Assembly: GCA_025611195.1 (NCBI GenBank) | Contig: GCA_025611195.1_4718.2 | Source: a phage | DNA: 64,000 nt | Direction: 5' to 3' (one strand) | In this document: positions 901 through 43,399 of the stretch, one piece after another | How the letters are laid out: every line of letters begins with the position of its first letter | Numbering within the stretch: the stretch's first letter is position 1 | The notes under the pieces: model-generated | The model's database searches: none | What the model was told of the DNA's origin: nothing | Seen by the model: the letters and a program-made list of their open reading frames with translations, nothing else | Program-made: the position numbers and the translations under genes

Positions 901-1531
901 TAATACCCTCTATTAGTTGTACGGCAACTTCTCTTTCGGTGTTATAAAAGAACTTACGGTGAAACTGAACAAGAAGTTTTTCGAATTTATGTTGAACGAT
1001 CTTTTTGCGTTCAATATGACCCAGGGAGAGCAAAGCGCCCATGCAACGTACCGCTTGTTCGAGAACTTGTTTCGCGGTATCGTGATCGTCCGGCAACGGT
1101 AAATCTTCCTCGTCATCTTTCGCGATAAGGCGTCTGATGATGTTATCAATACGTATCTCATCACCGTTAATGAAAGCGCCTTTCTCCCATTCATCAAATC
1201 GTTGATGGATTCGACGTTGTAAGTTGGCCCTGTCTTCCATTAACTCTTTCAACTGTTTTTCTAAGTGGGATACGGTACGGCGGTCGGTATCAGTGAAGTT
1301 TTCCGATTCTTTATACCACCAATCATTACGCGCTTGTAGGTCATTGATGCGAGATATTATCCGACGACACTCGTTAACAAACGCATCACCGTTCGATAGC
1401 TCCGTACCGAAATAGCATTTGTATTTATAACGCATAACACGGATTAAACGTTTCGCTAGAAAACCTTGTTTCTCCAGTTTCTTCTTCAGTTGTGCGTATT
1501 TCTCTTCTTTTGTTTCCGCGATATCTTTCAT
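884..1531 (-). CDS. hypothetical protein (215 aa)
   Basis: ORF track; charged, helical-looking sequence; small overlap with neighbours. Confidence 0.5.
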   Translation of the reverse strand: MKDIAETKEEKYAQLKKKLEKQGFLAKRLIRVMRYKYKCYFGTELSNGDAFVNECRRIISRINDLQARNDWWYKESENFTDTDRRTVSHLEKQLKELMEDRANLQRRIHQRFDEWEKGAFINGDEIRIDNIIRRLIAKDDEEDLPLPDDHDTAKQVLEQAVRCMGALLSLGHIERKKIVQHKFEKLLVQFHRKFFYNTEREVAVQLIEGINDDKL

Positions 1532-4821: not shown

Positions 4822-5355
4822 CTACTTAACGATCGCGATGATTTTGCCGCTCGCACCGGCGTAATATGCTGTTAATTCACCAGTAAACAACTCTTGTAAA
4901 AGACGATTTACGTGACTAACAAAGTTAGGATTGTCTGATTTTACAAACTCGATATTGCGCGTTTGTTTTATATCACGATCGATTAAACGGATTTCCAACA
5001 ACGCACAAATAAGGCGATCGTCGAGTTCACCACTCGCATCCAGCACTTCCCCATACTTCGTAGCACGGACGTCCGCATACATACGGTCAACATCATCCTT
5101 CCCAAAACCACAGGAATAGGCATACGTTGCGATGGTGTTACCATTGTCCATCACATAAACGTTACCACCTGGGTAATCGATAAATCGTTGATCCTTATCA
5201 CCATGAGCGACGAACTCCAGTGTCGGTCTACCCATCGAATCACGGTTGAATTCAATTGTGGTCAAGCGATCTGGTACCACATGCAACGTAAATGGTTTCG
5301 CATTGTTACGATCGCTAGTATCGCAGTTGCCCATTACTTTTACAATAACACTCAT
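4822..5355 (-). CDS. hypothetical protein, paralog of 4187..4735
   Basis: Tandem paralogy visible in translation (see 4187..4735). Confidence 0.55.
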   Translation of the reverse strand: MSVIVKVMGNCDTSDRNNAKPFTLHVVPDRLTTIEFNRDSMGRPTLEFVAHGDKDQRFIDYPGGNVYVMDNGNTIATYAYSCGFGKDDVDRMYADVRATKYGEVLDASGELDDRLICALLEIRLIDRDIKQTRNIEFVKSDNPNFVSHVNRLLQELFTGELTAYYAGASGKIIAIVK

Positions 5356-5429
5356 GTTTTATTCCTTAGTAGTCCTAGTAGTAGTATTGAGGAATAGCAC
5401 CTCATTAGATAGTCTATTTTGGTAATGAT

Positions 5430-5729
5430 TTACTGAAACAGGACATTAAACTCGACGAGATACCCATCGGATCTATCACCACGATATCTGTTGCAGAAAA
5501 CACCGAATTTCATCAAGAACTCACATAACTCTTCGGCTTTGTATAACGGAATACGATTTTCGTCGAGCAGAGGACACATATGGCTAACCAGCTCCGACGA
5601 ATCAACGCAACACAAATAAAGAAGGAACCGAACAATAGCTCGGTTCTTAGTGAAGCTCTCGAATTCACCTGCGGTTCTGAACTCATCGAGGAGCTTTGTC
5701 GTTTTCTTCAATCGTTCACGATCAAGCAT
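5430..5729 (-). CDS. hypothetical protein (99 aa)
   Basis: ORF track; ATG at 5729. Confidence 0.45.
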   Translation of the reverse strand: MLDRERLKKTTKLLDEFRTAGEFESFTKNRAIVRFLLYLCCVDSSELVSHMCPLLDENRIPLYKAEELCEFLMKFGVFCNRYRGDRSDGYLVEFNVLFQ

Positions 5730-5751
5730 GTTAACCTCAATACGAACATAA

Positions 5752-5783
5752 CCCTCCTCCGACCCATCAGGGAAGGAGGAGGG
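5752..5783 (-). terminator. CCCTCCTCC / GGAGGAGGG hairpin between minus genes
   Basis: 9-bp inverted repeat 5752-5760 / 5775-5783 just downstream of the stop at 5793. Confidence 0.5.
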
Positions 5784-5792
5784 AATATGCTG

Positions 5793-6107
5793 TTATTTTG
5801 TTTTAGGTGTTGAACCGTTCTTCTTGAAGTCGGATTCGTATTTCACGTTAGAATCGAGAACCTCACGAACGGTTTTATCCGTACAGCCACGAGCGATGTA
5901 TGCATTAAGATCATCACGTAATTTACGCATTGTTGTTTTATCCGCATCAGAAATATCTGACTTGGTAAGACGGAATGCAATTGCGTCACGGATTTTATTC
6001 AGCGTCGCTGGGTTAATACGCTGTTCTGCAAATACCGCTTTGATGAACTTATCGCTATCTTTCGAAGCGACGGCAGCATCAAGAATCTCAATATGCTTTT
6101 CAGACAT
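5793..6107 (-). CDS. hypothetical protein (104 aa)
   Basis: ORF track; basic/acidic mixed small protein. Confidence 0.45.
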   Translation of the reverse strand: MSEKHIEILDAAVASKDSDKFIKAVFAEQRINPATLNKIRDAIAFRLTKSDISDADKTTMRKLRDDLNAYIARGCTDKTVREVLDSNVKYESDFKKNGSTPKTK

Positions 6108-38821: not shown

Positions 38822-39061
38822 TTAGCAATGGTTGTTAGTTGCTTCTATTTCATCAAGATACGGTTCTACGTCATCGCCCTCCACGAATTCGTTGAACCAA
38901 CAGTCAATGGTAGAAATAACCGGTGACTGGTGTTCACATTTCTTAGATACCTTAAAAGGTACGTTATTATCCATCATACCGAGTTCGGGTCGAAAACGCC
39001 CGAAATGTTTCGCAGTCCAAATGTCTGGGACGATATGGTTGTTCATCGTGGTGTTCAGCAT
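38822..39061 (-). CDS. small ORF immediately 3' of the intron region; possible downstream exon of the beta-prime-like gene
   Basis: ATG at 39061 with GAGGT RBS; MNNHIVP and LGMMDNNVPF weakly resemble the beta-prime segment following the catalytic loop (MAVHVP, LMMSTNNILSP). Confidence 0.35.
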   Translation of the reverse strand: MLNTTMNNHIVPDIWTAKHFGRFRPELGMMDNNVPFKVSKKCEHQSPVISTIDCWFNEFVEGDDVEPYLDEIEATNNHC

Positions 39062-39064
39062 GAG

Positions 39065-39740
39065 TCGCTACCTCATACCCGCAGCTTTACCTGCAGCTTC
39101 CGGTGTTACCGGAATGTCCAGAATACATCTTATCCATATTCCAAATGGAACGTAGGACTTCCGCGCTGGATCTCGCTTGAGACCACGTATTCGTTGAACG
39201 TTCTCCTGAACGGAGCTTCGCTGCTGATCGAACATTGTCGTGTACGGTAGGCATCCCCGAAGGGATTGTCATTGAAGCCGCGTACATCCGCTACCTTGTT
39301 TCTACCTTATCGGTTCCTCTTACGAGGCGTAGCGGCCTTAGCCCTTCCCAGCAATTCACGGAATCCAAGCTCTTCCTTTCGGAAGGCAGGGCCTATGATT
39401 AAGCATCCCCGTCGCTGTTATCGACTATATCTTCATCCTCGTTGCGAGGAGTCTCCCGTTTGGGTCTGTGTTTAACAGAGCCTACTCTACTCAACATCGC
39501 GTCTTTCGATAGTCTGTGAGCACACATCTTAACGAACATTCGTGGATTCCTAAACAGGTGAACGTTCTTGTTGAGATGCTTCGCTGCGGATTATTCCCGT
39601 CCTACCTCTTTTACCGTACCCAGTTCATTACGCTGGCCCTCATCTATGTCACCATGATGAGTTGGTGTGTAGTCCGATTACAGAAACTTCCCGTCAATTA
39701 GAGAGTTTTAACTACGTTCCTGTTACCAGAAACCAGATCC
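39065..39740 (-). ncRNA. group I intron-like element B (approximate boundaries)
   Basis: Minus strand carries Q-like AATCCGCAGCGAAG (39592-39579), R-like GCTCACAGACTATCG (39521-39507) and S-like GAAGATATAGTCG (39433-39423); no long ORF. Confidence 0.5.
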
Positions 39741-39814
39741 CGACGGTATCAATAAATCAACGTAAGTTATTGATTTAATTGAAAAACTGAAATCTGCATT
39801 ATCTAAATCTTCAG

Positions 39815-40185
39815 TATGGTTCGCTACTCCATACCCGTACCTCATGTACTGCTTACGTCTTTCACGTAAGGATAGACTATATCTTTCACCCTCAGCATTA
39901 TCTGGTCGGGGCTCCCATTTCGGCGGTCAGATGACCGGTGGTTTCCCACGCCGCTTGGCCCTAACGCCCGTAAGCGATAGTCGTTGAGCACATCTCCGTT
40001 CTGGAGACTTCGCTGCGGATTCCCCAATCCTTGCCGCTTTTACCGTACCTGAATGATTAGTTCAGCCCCACGCTCTGTTCCCAGGCATGGTTGGTGGACG
40101 AGGCTCTAAGTAGGTTCCCGCATTAGAGAGTTCCTCGTAACAACATTTCTGCGTTACTGGGCCTAACGACCCTTTCAAGATCATC
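39815..40185 (-). ncRNA. group I intron-like element A (approximate boundaries)
   Basis: Minus strand carries P/Q-like GGTAAAAGCGGCAAGG...AATCCGCAGCGAAG (40044-40008), R-like GCTCAACGACTATCG (39987-39975), S-like AAAGATATAGTC (39885-39875) and a P9-like hairpin CTTACG-TGAAAGA-CGTAAG. Confidence 0.55.
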
Positions 40186-41411
40186 ACGCTTAACCCGATG
40201 GTGTTATCCTGCGGATCGCGTTTAACCTTGGTGATTTCAAGACATTGGTTACTGCTTCGGTCAAGTGATGGGTTTCGAACAAAGCCGCACACAATCCCAT
40301 CGAACGGTGTATCAGCAATAAGCTCATCATGCAGCTCGCTCATCATCGGATGATAATTACGGACATGTTCCGCAACGAACGCACGTGCTGCTCTCGGTGA
40401 ATAACCGCGATGGAATAACTTGGATTGGATATGTTCTTTATTGGTTAAAGTAAATGGTGCGTATGGGAAATGCAGATGATAATAACGATGGTTCGCTGTT
40501 ATCGAACTGATTACGGTACGCGTGGTGAATGGATGTAATGTACCTAATATGTTTTTACGCGTGATACCTTTCTTCTTACCGATGAACTCATCGAAAATCG
40601 CCGCGTGGTATTGCAGCAGCTTCAATTGCACTTTCGCCATCCAGTTTTCTTTCTTTCTGGCGCTCAAAGGTGTTGTTGGATGATAGATACTATTCAGTGT
40701 ACCAATAGCATCGATCGCACCTTCCATTTTGCTATCTGCATAACGGCCGGTCGGTGTATTTTCGATAACGAACATCATGGCCGCAGGAAAGCTGATATAC
40801 TGACTGAAGAACTTATCACGATGGATACGGATGAATTCTCGTAGCGTGTCAACTTTCTCTGTGTTCTTCGGTCCACGTAATGTGGGTCCTTTATACAAGA
40901 TCTCCATGATGCGATCGAAGTTCTGTATAAAGCTATTTACACCACGCCGTATCCCGAATACATCAAATTGCTGCTCCAGATAGTTCTTGAGTTCAATGGG
41001 TCGTTTTACATTTGGACGGTAACTGGCATCAATGAGCCACGTCATCGTTTCGAAGCTTTTGATATTCAACTCGCTTGCCAGCACGAGATGGACCAACGGG
41101 TTAATGAACGCATCGATTCCTTCAGGGACACGCGCCCAGACCGTCGAACGAATCTCCTGTTCTGCTGGGTAGGTTACAACCGTTTTACAGTTTGGACACA
41201 CCGTGCCGAGCAACTCACCGCGATTGTAGAAACCACAACCACATTGTGGCGTGATATCCAACGTATCGCTGGAGTAAACACGGGTGATAAAACTGTTTAA
41301 TTTCTTCTTCTCTTCGACGACTTTTGTATCGTAATCGTTCAACAAAATCGGCGTAAAGGGAAGTTCTGCGAGCTGTCTATCGAAACTCACGATATCGAGC
41401 ATGATGGCCAT
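40062..41411 (-). CDS. RNA polymerase beta-prime subunit, N-terminal portion; 3' end of this ORF probably reads into intron A
   Basis: Zn-binding CGCGFYNRGELLGTVCPNC; GKKKGITRKNILGTLHPFTTRTVIS aligns with beta-prime [24 protein letters not shown]; ORF ends before any DFDGD catalytic loop. Confidence 0.6.
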   Translation of the reverse strand: MAIMLDIVSFDRQLAELPFTPILLNDYDTKVVEEKKKLNSFITRVYSSDTLDITPQCGCGFYNRGELLGTVCPNCKTVVTYPAEQEIRSTVWARVPEGIDAFINPLVHLVLASELNIKSFETMTWLIDASYRPNVKRPIELKNYLEQQFDVFGIRRGVNSFIQNFDRIMEILYKGPTLRGPKNTEKVDTLREFIRIHRDKFFSQYISFPAAMMFVIENTPTGRYADSKMEGAIDAIGTLNSIYHPTTPLSARKKENWMAKVQLKLLQYHAAIFDEFIGKKKGITRKNILGTLHPFTTRTVISSITANHRYYHLHFPYAPFTLTNKEHIQSKLFHRGYSPRAARAFVAEHVRNYHPMMSELHDELIADTPFDGIVCGFVRNPSLDRSSNQCLEITKVKRDPQDNTIGLSVMILKGSLGPVTQKCCYEELSNAGTYLEPRPPTMPGNRAWG

Positions 41412-41503: not shown

Positions 41504-43399
41504 TTAGAACAGGTTGAATGCTCCACCCATGTTGTTACCACCAACATTCGGACGATCGCTACGTGCATAGATGTTGCCGGAGATGTTACCCAGACCACGA
41601 GCACGTGCTGCTGTGTTACCACGAACGGCGGTACCTGCCAGATGCTGGATGTTCTCAGGACGGATGGTGAAGCCAGCTTCGGCAGCCGCTTCAATCAATG
41701 CCGCAAGCGCATTCGGTTCGAAATCGTAACGCATTGCCCAACCGGTTTGTTCCCAGCTACCAGACAGAACGCGATCGATGATTTCGTGACGAGCAACAAC
41801 ACGCTGAGACATCGACATATCGGTACGGTCGAAGCTGTCTTCCCAAGCTTCTACGGTATCCGGGTTAGTGATGTTCATCATGTACAGATCGTCCATATCA
41901 CGAATATCGTGACGGTTACCGTCCTGGTGGTTGTAGTGACCCAGCGGGATACGGTTACCAGTAGCGTAGACTAACGGTTGGCCGTATTGATATTTCTTGC
42001 TGAAGCAACCCAGGGTGGTATCATCGAATGCACGATAGAGTGCTTTATAGCCTTCGGAGATTTCTTGAACTTTACCGTCAACGTTGCCCGTAAAGATCTT
42101 CTCAGCTGCAGGGATCATACGCAGCAACCAGCTATATTCGCCTTCTTCCGGTACGTCGATAGAAATCAGCAGAGACGGATACAGTACCTGTTGCAGGAAC
42201 TTGTAAATCTGCTCGTTGGTTTGAGTAGACAGATCCAGCGGTGCAGTAACTTCCGGATCCAGTACCATCGCCAGAGCACCCGGGTTATGCGGACCAATAC
42301 CACGAGCAGCGTTGCTGATTAAAGACTGCGCCCACGCCATACCGCTGTTCAGCGTAGCGATGGTACCAATCAGACCCAGCACAAACGTGTTCGGAGTGAA
42401 CGCATCCAGCTCCAGCGGGTAGGCGCTGGTCATCACGTAACGCGGTTGGTACTGTACAGTCGGCGGTACCGGATAACCGTTAACCAGAACAGGACCTTGG
42501 TTGAAGGTCGGGTTCTGCGGGCTGTAGGTCAGGTCAATGTAACCAGTGGTTGCGACCAGGCGCTGTTGACTATCGTAATCGCTCATCGCTTGACGGATAC
42601 GGTTAGAGATAGTTACAGTGATGTCAGAACGCACTGGGTTACCGACGATATCGCTGTCCTGCATACCGCTGGTGTTGTACTGAACGCTGCTGATCGGCTG
42701 ATCGCTTGCCATCATGCCCAGGTTGAACTGCGGCAGACCCAGTTTATCGCCGAGACGGATTTCGATCGCGGTTTGGATTGCGTTATCTGCAGCAGACAGC
42801 AGGGTGGTTGCCAGATGCGCAGATTCAGCAGTGATTTCATTGGTCACCACAGCCAGACCGGCGATACGAACAGTACCGTTAGCCTTACCGCCAATAGCCG
42901 CATACATTGCCGCCATGACTTCGTTGATGAACGTGCCGTTCAGGTTATCAACCCAGGTACGCGGTACCAGAATGTTACCATGCGGACCTTGTTCTTCACG
43001 ACGCGGCAGCGGAGCCAAACCGGCAACCAGCGGAAGCACATAACCGAAGAAGTGGTTATGGTCACCAACTTTTGCACCGCTCATAACAACCAGGGTCGGA
43101 TACGGTACACTGTACTGGTTAGGATCGACGGTCACCATGATGAAGTCGTCTTTGAACCCTTTATCTTCCAGTTCTTTCTCCATCAGACGACGGAGATTCA
43201 GTACCTGCTCGGAGCCAGTATTACGGCTAATACGACGGCTCAGTGTACGGTTGATCGTACGCATCGTATGAGTTACTTTAGGCTGGCCAGCAAAATCTGC
43301 AGCGGTTTCCAGCGCCTCATCAGCACGTTGTGCGGTGCGGGTTTCAGCTGCACGAATTTCTACATTATCGTTACCGTTATTACGTACGTCTAAGCCCAT
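41504..43399 (-). CDS. candidate chimallin (ChmA) phage-nucleus shell protein; alternative: major virion structural protein
   Basis: 631 aa with low-complexity N- and C-terminal tails; AAGAGGAA RBS; TATATTAC early-promoter motif upstream; strong terminator downstream; PhuZ encoded 8 kb away. Identity not verifiable by eye. Confidence 0.4.
   Translation of the reverse strand: MGLDVRNNGNDNVEIRAAETRTAQRADEALETAADFAGQPKVTHTMRTINRTLSRRISRNTGSEQVLNLRRLMEKELEDKGFKDDFIMVTVDPNQYSVPYPTLVVMSGAKVGDHNHFFGYVLPLVAGLAPLPRREEQGPHGNILVPRTWVDNLNGTFINEVMAAMYAAIGGKANGTVRIAGLAVVTNEITAESAHLATTLLSAADNAIQTAIEIRLGDKLGLPQFNLGMMASDQPISSVQYNTSGMQDSDIVGNPVRSDITVTISNRIRQAMSDYDSQQRLVATTGYIDLTYSPQNPTFNQGPVLVNGYPVPPTVQYQPRYVMTSAYPLELDAFTPNTFVLGLIGTIATLNSGMAWAQSLISNAARGIGPHNPGALAMVLDPEVTAPLDLSTQTNEQIYKFLQQVLYPSLLISIDVPEEGEYSWLLRMIPAAEKIFTGNVDGKVQEISEGYKALYRAFDDTTLGCFSKKYQYGQPLVYATGNRIPLGHYNHQDGNRHDIRDMDDLYMMNITNPDTVEAWEDSFDRTDMSMSQRVVARHEIIDRVLSGSWEQTGWAMRYDFEPNALAALIEAAAEAGFTIRPENIQHLAGTAVRGNTAARARGLGNISGNIYARSDRPNVGGNNMGGAFNLF

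Follow-up and report, generated by a model that had tools for sequence, protein, structure and literature searches.

Introduction

Two reports describe predicted group I introns with endonucleases in the polymerase genes of phage phiKZ, including gp55/gp56 (PMC10914365, PMC11512511; citing Mesyanzhinov 2002, Ceyssens 2014), and the PDB entry of the phiKZ polymerase names a chain PHIKZ055 plus PHIKZ056.1, which is read here as the joined product of the phiKZ gene. In Escherichia phage vB_EcoM_Goslar, one intron (Intron_gpI, ncRNA 169269-169645, with HNH endonuclease gp186) is annotated in the corresponding gene. Here, we describe this gene in a 64,000-nt stretch of phage DNA (assembly GCA_025611195.1, contig GCA_025611195.1_4718.2; the window, below). 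All features discussed lie on its minus strand. The gene is very probably interrupted by three tandem group I introns without open reading frames (ORFs), A, B, and C, all inserted within the 27 nt coding for the Mg-binding catalytic loop (GYNADFDGDAM); splicing would yield a 497-aa protein. The phiKZ gp55/gp56/gp56.1 locus is alike in that an intron adjoins the same catalytic motif of the orthologous gene, but it has one intron, with a 386-aa endonuclease gene and at another site, whereas the window has three ORF-less introns at three other sites. Intron B shares both gene and site with Goslar Intron_gpI; Goslar, however, lacks intron A, and its intron B contains a P9 stem and an HNH/NUMOD1 gene, both missing in the window.

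In Staphylococcus phage Twort, orf142 holds three group I introns, with a 23-nt exon between two similar IA2 introns and with exon skipping (Landthaler and Shub 1999 via PMC10136302). In the 23S rRNA gene of Coxiella, two introns flank a 34-nt exon (PMC10136302). As in Twort orf142, related introns stand in tandem in one phage gene with a very short exon between them, but the window has two consecutive 13-nt exons, which fall within an enzyme active-site motif and are shorter than the exons of the Twort and Coxiella cases, the two used for comparison. Very short exons between group I introns have also been reported in organellar genes. In phage PhiPA3, the intron endonuclease gp210, in the virion RNA polymerase beta-subunit (RpoB-homolog) gene, interferes with phiKZ (PMC11620839). 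There, too, a group I intron sits at conserved residues of a chimallivirus polymerase gene, and its endonuclease attacks an allele that lacks the intron, carried by a co-infecting relative. The polymerase, the subunit, and the site are different, however, and the window introns have no endonuclease, so any competitive role of theirs would be passive (target-site protection). Our literature search found no paper that links DFDGD with group I introns or describes the Goslar introns. The phiKZ introns in this gene and the annotation of intron B in Goslar are already known, and, taken singly, the elements are ordinary group I introns of phages; new are the triple arrangement, the micro-exons, and the presence, across related phages, of at least eight insertion sites in ~33 nt.

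Predicted Exon Structure of the Interrupted Gene

Residues 1-414 of the product of ORF 40062..41411 (449 aa) were matched to phrog_2987 ("RNA polymerase beta subunit"), while ORF 38822..39061 (79 aa) matched positions 424-475, the end of the same profile. Among solved structures, the best match is phiKZ gp55 (PDB 7ogp_A, E 1.1e-74), which forms the N-terminal beta-prime subunit of the non-virion RNA polymerase. Judged by these matches, the interrupted gene is the phiKZ gp55 ortholog and encodes the N-terminal half of beta-prime in the non-virion RNA polymerase. The original prediction, made from the sequence of the window, had described the upstream ORF as a beta-prime N-terminal homolog that ends before DFDGD, in agreement with the phrog_2987 and 7ogp_A matches. 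It had also called the downstream ORF beta-prime-like, which is correct for phrog_2987 424-475; the start of that ORF, 39061, nevertheless lies 15 nt inside intron C, and the coding segment proper, exon 4, would start at 39046. The 1.1-kb gap between the two ORFs contains no long ORF, as had been stated.

With junctions set by protein homology alone, four exons were delineated. Exon 1 (41411..40169) ends in ..ATC TTG AAA GGG T, where the last T is the first base of a Tyr codon. Exon 2 (39802..39790; ATAATGCAGATTT = AT AAT GCA GAT TT) is 13 nt long and encodes (Y)NAD(F). Exon 3 (39414..39402; CGACGGGGATGCT = C GAC GGG GAT GCT), also 13 nt long, encodes (F)DGDA and thus two of the three catalytic aspartates. 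Exon 4 (39046..38822; ATG AAC AAC CAT .. TAA) encodes MNNHIVPDIWTAK.. to the stop and corresponds to phrog_2987 424-475. The DGD codons, GAC GGG GAT at 39413..39405, had been reported as absent from every exon candidate; they directly follow G 39415, where the alignment of intron B with the Rfam group I intron model RF00028 ends, and the exon model that had been left open is settled through exon 3.

The position of intron A can be read from Goslar, which is collinear with window exon 1 through its last base, lacks window positions 40170..39803, and reads ..ATC CTC AAA GGT TAT AAT GCC GAC TTC.. (ILKGYNADF), with AAAGGTTATAATGCC (KGYNA) at the junction. The boundary ..AAAGGGT / CGTTAGG...GATTTAG / ATAATGCA was assigned to intron A because it is the sole one that reproduces KGYNA.

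Joining the four exons gives a single 497-aa frame (..ILKGYNADFDGDAMNNH.. / ..MILKGYNADFDGDAMNNHIVPD.. / ..MILKGYNADFDGDAMNNHIVPDIWTAK..), as expected under the continuity check proposed in the original prediction, i.e., a continuous beta-prime protein with DFDGD. The predicted mature junctions are AAAGGGT-ATAATGCAGATTT-CGACGGGGATGCT-ATGAACAAC (joined sequence AAAGGGTATAATGCAGATTTCGACGGGGATGCTATGAACAAC), the predicted peptide across them is GYNADFDGDAMNNH (GYNADFDGDAMNNHIVPDIWTAK), and the predicted mature transcript is ~1096 nt shorter than the genomic DNA. Among intron-less homologs, P0002 is the closest (65% identity); it reads ..LILKGYNADFDGDAMNHH.. and matches the spliced product over all three junctions; its DNA is ATC CTG AAA GGG TAT AAC GCT GAC TTT GAT GGT GAT GCC ATG AAC. 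The intron-less relative L089 has GAC TTT GAT GGT GAT GCC ATG. Aligned with phiKZ gp55 (7ogp_A, at the E-value given above), the spliced protein has no gap at any of the three junctions; splicing in silico also makes the phrog_2987 match continuous (1-474) and lifts its score to 445.6 bits, as compared with 380.6 bits before joining.

Residues N416, A417, D418, D420, G421, and D422 are invariant across 47 homologs, and the intact NADFDGD loop appears in a continuous frame only once all three introns are removed. No counterpart of the ORF tails, SLGPVTQ.. and MLNTT, was found among the homologs. The junctions also conform to the group I rules for splice sites: U is the last base of every 5' exon and in P1 is paired with a guide-sequence G in each intron, and G is the last base of every intron (..UUUAG in A, ..AACAG in B, ..CCACG in C). 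For intron C, other 3' sites in frame (after GCUG, which would give DGDA-NTT-MNNH) were considered and rejected, since P10 fits AUGA only and no full-length homolog bearing the motif has an insertion after DGD.

Detection of Group I Introns

In E-value mode, RF00028 was the only Rfam family with E<0.05 in the whole window. It matched intron B at 39415..39781 (46.9 bits, E 8.5e-9 window-wide and 2.8e-10 locally) and intron A at 39853..40189 (29.6 bits, E 1.3e-3 window-wide and 4e-5 locally); intron C was matched in part (39159..39363) with 16.7 bits, at E 0.3 or, when 381 nt were searched, 0.055. At the gathering threshold, the whole window gave no Rfam match. A 42-nt P5/P4 pattern occurs twice in the window, against no occurrence in 100 shuffles. 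Taken together with the standing of RF00028 as the sole family below E 0.05, this puts the motif copies beyond chance.

The original prediction had assigned the gap to minus-strand group I introns interrupting a beta-prime-like RNA polymerase gene at its catalytic loop, and this reading is supported. The motifs on which it was built are present: AATCCGCAGCGAAG at 40021-40008 and 39592-39579, R-like GCTCAACGACTATCG at 39989-39975 and GCTCACAGACTATCG at 39521-39507 (displaced by no more than 2 nt from the positions first given), S-like AAGATATAGTC at 39885-39875 and 39433-39423, and the shared upstream AACTCTCTAAT at 40132-40122 and 39707-39697. The mutual homology of the first two introns was likewise borne out, A and B aligning over ~160 nt with 65% identity (E 1e-9; nhmmer E ~1e-7). 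The proposed search with RF00028 gave window-wide significant matches to A and B, all below the 50-bit gathering score, and the proposed folding of P1-P9 located paired core helices in all three introns (B without P9). The number of introns was in error, since two had been claimed and three are very probably present: the "280-nt insertion" in B, suspected to be a degraded homing-endonuclease remnant, corresponds to a complete third intron, C. Both copies of a 3' segment, GGGTATG..GTAGCGA, are real (39836-39821 and 39080-39065), but the second belongs to C rather than B; similarly, a third Q-like copy exists (ATCAGCAGCGAAG, 39228-39216) but sits in C and is no insertion in B.

Searching the window with nhmmer revealed no further A, B, or C paralogs, and no similarity between B and C was detectable by sequence alignment or nhmmer. 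When the phages in GenBank were searched by blastn, Goslar was matched by B and C; short core matches were found for A and B in Bacillus and PhiPA3 phages and for A only in Escherichia, Vibrio, and Enterococcus phages, while beyond Goslar C had only two marginal ~40-nt matches. The short matches to other phage introns gave nothing usable for covariation. Blastn of the introns showed no similarity to T4. The T4 td intron (IA2) is presumably similar in its 5' guide region (UAAUUGAGGCCU), its R/S elements, its extra hairpins between P7 and P3, and its 3' tail, ..CUGAACAUAAUG.

Predicted Structures and Covariation

In all three introns, the P3-P8 core was located in canonical order and paired, with the P3/P7 pseudoknot. 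Intron A (39803..40168, 366 nt, terminal G 39803) has an internal guide sequence (IGS) composed of GUUA (40167-40164), which pairs with UAAU, bases 2-5 of exon 2, in a 4-bp P10, and GCCC (40162-40159), which pairs with exon 1 GGGU in P1. Its other elements are P3 (40130-40126 / 39916-39912), P4 (40122-40117 / 40019-40014), P7 (39982-39978 / 39879-39875), P9 (39870-39852), and P9.1 (39835-39813). The copy in an IMG/VR contig, L006, is 95.9% identical, and its changes preserve pairing: window versus L006, P2 has G-C versus G-U, P10 U-G versus U-A, P3 CUCUC/GGGAG versus CUCCC/GGGGG, and P9a GUAC..GUAC versus GCAC..GUGC.

The P2-P6 half of intron A is similar to B (E ~1e-7 to 1e-9), while the part from P6 to the 3' end is similar to the family of intron C (profile E 1.4e-8), as is the guide region UAGGCCC. 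Intron A thus looks mosaic, for which recombination between neighbouring introns is a possible cause.

Intron B (39415..39789, 375 nt, terminal G 39415) has no P9. Its IGS pairs CCGUCG (39746-39741) with CGACGG, the first six bases of exon 3, in a 6-bp P10, and GGAUCUG (39740-39734) with CAGAUUU, the last seven bases of exon 2, in P1, with the U-G pair at the splice site. A hairpin occupies the P1 loop (39782-39749); P2 (39733-39716), P3 (39705-39701 / 39457-39453), P4 (39696-39690 / 39590-39585), P7 (39514-39510 / 39427-39423), and P8 (39450-39436) were also placed. Identity to the Intron_gpI annotated in Goslar is 97.3%. Exon 2 of Goslar carries synonymous changes, GCA GAT to GCC GAC, and a matching change in the guide, GGGAUCUG to GGAGUCGG. 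When 79 pairs were scored on the window, Goslar, and L006, pairing was complete (100% of 237 cells), against 35-46% in slid controls; three pairs differed on both sides, of which the two in P1 are coupled to the synonymous exon changes.

Intron C (39047..39401, 355 nt, terminal G 39047) has the guide region UCAU-A-GGC, in which UCAU (39398-39395) forms a 4-bp P10 with exon 4 AUGA and GGC (39393-39391) forms P1 with exon 3 GCU. P2 (39385-39372), P3 (39363-39357 / 39165-39159), P4 (39353-39348 / 39227-39222), P7 (39192-39188 / 39125-39121), P7.1 (39184-39169), P8 (39157-39133), P9 (39114-39098), P9a (39096-39079), and P9.1 (39078-39058) complete the fold. Compensatory differences set C apart from A and B in P3 (CCGUG/CGCGG versus CUCUC/GGGAG), P4 (UGCUGG/UCAGCA versus UGCGGG/UCCGCA), and P7 (GAAUA/UAUUC versus GACUA/UAGUC). 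Introns A, B, and C contain insertions of ~60, 50, and 22 nt, respectively, that follow P7 and precede the 3' strand of P3, the place of the extra hairpins (P7.1/P7.2) in td-like phage introns of subgroup IA; that of C is a covarying hairpin with six of six pairs changed on both sides.

Intron C is 99.4% identical in Goslar. Two more distant relatives, C' and D, are found in another IMG/VR contig, L005 (85% and 72% identity), and give full-length RF00028 matches of 28 and 26 bits. At position 3 of P7, all four Watson-Crick pairs are seen over A/B, C, C', and D. In the C family (five members), the group I topology with the P3/P7 pseudoknot leaves 98.6% of cells paired (slid controls, 36-43%), and 28 of 90 pairs are changed on both sides, a number reached in none of 500 shuffles, with 1-2 such pairs in slid controls. 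RNAalifold counted 32 pairs changed on both sides. Two helices that it proposed, C IGS-P5 and J5/4-3' tail, were rejected, as they clash with P1 or break in relatives.

The C-family guide GGCCC (window UAGGCCC, 39395..39389; L005 5259-5265) pairs perfectly with GGGU, the sequence found at the intron A site. The C family may have originated at a GGGU site.

Intron Content of Close Relatives

The arrangement seen in the window, namely A, B without P9 or endonuclease, and C, is also found in L006, a 183-kb contig, and in a 3-kb Logan contig. Goslar (L001/L004, with L001 = NC_048170) has no A, a B with P9 and the endonuclease gene, and C. In L005 (237.5 kb, IMGVR_UViG_3300011560_000001), region 5252..5976 has neither A nor B and instead contains intron D, an 18-nt exon (GACTTTGACGGTGATGCC), and C' at the C site. 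Intron D is C-like and is inserted after AAC GCT (NA/DF), a fourth site, so this lineage uses four insertion sites within 27 nt. Both target sites in L005 end in GCY, which fits the 3-nt guide GGC, and the C-type introns of this contig suggest ectopic spread to a nearby look-alike site.

In Goslar intron B, P9 is a 14-bp stem (UUACGUGCACCGAC..GUCGGUGCACGUAA) around a gene for a 336-aa HNH_3 + NUMOD1 endonuclease. The stem and the gene, together 1065 nt (L001 3719..4783), are cleanly absent from the window (at 39417/39416) and from L006, which in the window leaves GAUAACAG ahead of the splice site. Neither the Goslar endonuclease nor one of phiKZ type had a tblastn match in the window introns, and no ORF with endonuclease similarity was found in 39047..40168.

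The Goslar GenBank/RefSeq records (L001 3355-5378 = window 39789..38822) annotate one intron only and enter two separate genes, a truncated exon 1 ORF (423 aa) and gp185, an 80-aa 'hypothetical protein'. They annotate neither intron C, nor the 13-nt exon 3, nor the location of the gp185 start inside intron C.

An Insertion Hot Spot at the Catalytic Loop

Introns at the same loop were also found in other phages: LKA/PNADFDGD in Xanthomonas phage LucasX (L008; RF00028 54.7 bits), PN/ADFDGD in Pseudomonas phage T2P (L007; 80.4 bits), DFDG/D in L090, with an HNH gene, and DFDGD/Q in the phiKZ-like contig L029 (74.8 bits), with a 386-aa endonuclease gene. Together with A, D, B, and C, these make at least eight DNA-verified sites in ~33 nt around the NADFDGD codons of chimallivirus non-virion beta-prime genes, and many of the introns come with an HNH endonuclease gene. 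Such a hot spot accords with the established view that homing endonucleases and their introns favour those codons of essential genes that are most strongly conserved (reviewed in PMC12908238). The insertion site differs even between the phiKZ-like T2P (classified in Phikzvirus) and L029. Some metagenomic homologs (among P0025-P0065) stop after NA, NAD, or DFD, with an HNH gene called just downstream for NAD and DFD, which suggests further insertion sites. The related-locus search, being keyed on NADFDGD, returned almost only uninterrupted genes and is no measure of site occupancy.

Alternative Explanations and Implications

Several observations weigh against splicing of three introns. None of the scores (A 29.6, B 46.9, C 16.7 bits) attains the RF00028 gathering score of 50 bits, and C alone is barely detectable with this model. 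P1 is 4 bp long in A and only 3 bp in C, where the guide GGCCC would fit a GGGU exon better than the actual GCU; B is without P9; and the L005 relative at the C site has C rather than U before the 5' splice site (C-G for U-G). The tested structure of the C family was partly taken from RNAalifold on the same alignment. Finally, for the analogous introns of phiKZ, a published long-read study detected no splicing under the conditions used there (PMC10914365).

At least one intron, most plausibly A or C, could be splicing-dead, the DNA being that of a defective variant or the assembly of a non-viable genome. The low RF00028 scores of A and C and the short P1 of both would be in line with this. We consider it very improbable, because the three-intron layout recurs in the independent 183-kb IMG/VR contig and the Logan contig, the differences between copies keep pairing, C is nearly identical in the cultured phage Goslar, and the exon 1 read-through ORF belongs to a protein cluster with 159 members.

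Translation of the 449-aa and 79-aa ORFs apart, without any splicing and with the DNA between them as spacer or decayed introns, would leave both products without the DGD of the invariant NADFDGD and with tails that are unmatched in homologs. In jumbo phages, the polymerase subunits are naturally divided among several genes, GenBank/RefSeq list the Goslar pieces as separate proteins, and the phiKZ transcriptome study cited above detected no splicing. Nevertheless, compensatory evolution indicates selection on RNA structure, and the phiKZ structure contains the chain PHIKZ055 plus PHIKZ056.1, read as a joined product; we therefore regard this explanation as very improbable.

That there are just two introns, B extending over 39789..39047 with a 280-nt insertion from a decayed endonuclease gene and DNADF being joined directly to the downstream ORF, is hardly credible, even though RF00028 has only two significant window-scale matches and in Goslar the B core is indeed separated from the downstream sequence by an endonuclease gene: such a splice gives no DGD, the codons for which (39413..39405) are flanked by the terminal G of B and a U/..G/ intron, the RF00028 alignment of B stops at 39415, the B guide pairs over 6 bp with CGACGG (39414..39409), and the downstream segment has its own full covarying group I fold, coexists with an intact endonuclease gene in Goslar, and has no endonuclease similarity.

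Splicing of three introns is the reading we prefer. The pre-mRNA would fold as three independent ribozymes, each aligning its own splice sites by its IGS, and guanosine-initiated splicing at U/..G/ would join the four exons into the 497-aa frame with an intact NADFDGD. Exon 2 offers bases 2-5 for P10 of A and bases 7-13 for P1 of B, while exon 3 offers bases 1-6 for P10 of B and bases 11-13 for P1 of C. Since the P10 and P1 partners within the micro-exons do not overlap, the pairings imply that the three reactions would be independent and could occur in any order. The gene is essential to these phages and Goslar, a cultured isolate, carries both B and C, so these two introns presumably must be removed in vivo. 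We infer the actual splicing chemistry, the arrival of the introns by endonuclease-driven homing or reverse splicing, and the shielding of the phage, through occupied sites, from endonucleases of co-infecting relatives.

If correct, the predicted structure amends the annotation of a gene for an essential polymerase subunit in a lineage of E. coli jumbo phages used as a model. Near-identical phages that differ only in the occupied sites (four in 27 nt) and in the presence of the endonuclease gene constitute a natural experiment, which suits the study of homing, endonuclease-gene loss, ectopic transposition to sites with a short guide match, and co-infection interference. The two consecutive 13-nt exons probe the minimum exon that a group I ribozyme needs. 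These phages transcribe in a protein-walled nucleus, apart from ribosomes, and three serial ribozymes operating there would contrast with T4, where translation assists intron folding. A more speculative and, in our view, rather doubtful proposal is that the density of introns reflects more than parasitism: in Goslar-like phages the catalytic-loop codons would be a battleground of the intron endonucleases of co-infecting relatives, with stacked ORF-less introns serving as armour that destroys every recognition site nearby, and the micro-exons would leave room for exon skipping or a set order of splicing, thereby gating the amount of active non-virion polymerase.

Genomic Context and Additional Observations

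The 4-kb stretch around the introns is 96.8% identical to Goslar, in three blocks with two length differences. Immediately upstream of the interrupted gene lies a gene for chimallin, the phage-nucleus shell protein (41504..43399; PF25677, E 4.8e-28; phrog_4795), and in phiKZ the chimallin gene adjoins the polymerase gene as well. The source of the window is evidently a Goslar-like nucleus-forming jumbo phage.

When viral contigs were searched with a DNA pattern, the single match was an intron of an unrelated phage contig, L003 (IMGVR_UViG_3300000233_000006, 128 kb). This element, at 945..1270, is a canonical group I intron (RF00028 94.4 bits) that carries the exact GGTACGGTAAAAG..AATCCGCAGCGAAG motif and splits a 347-aa ORF ending in ..KHYNMADHNARK.

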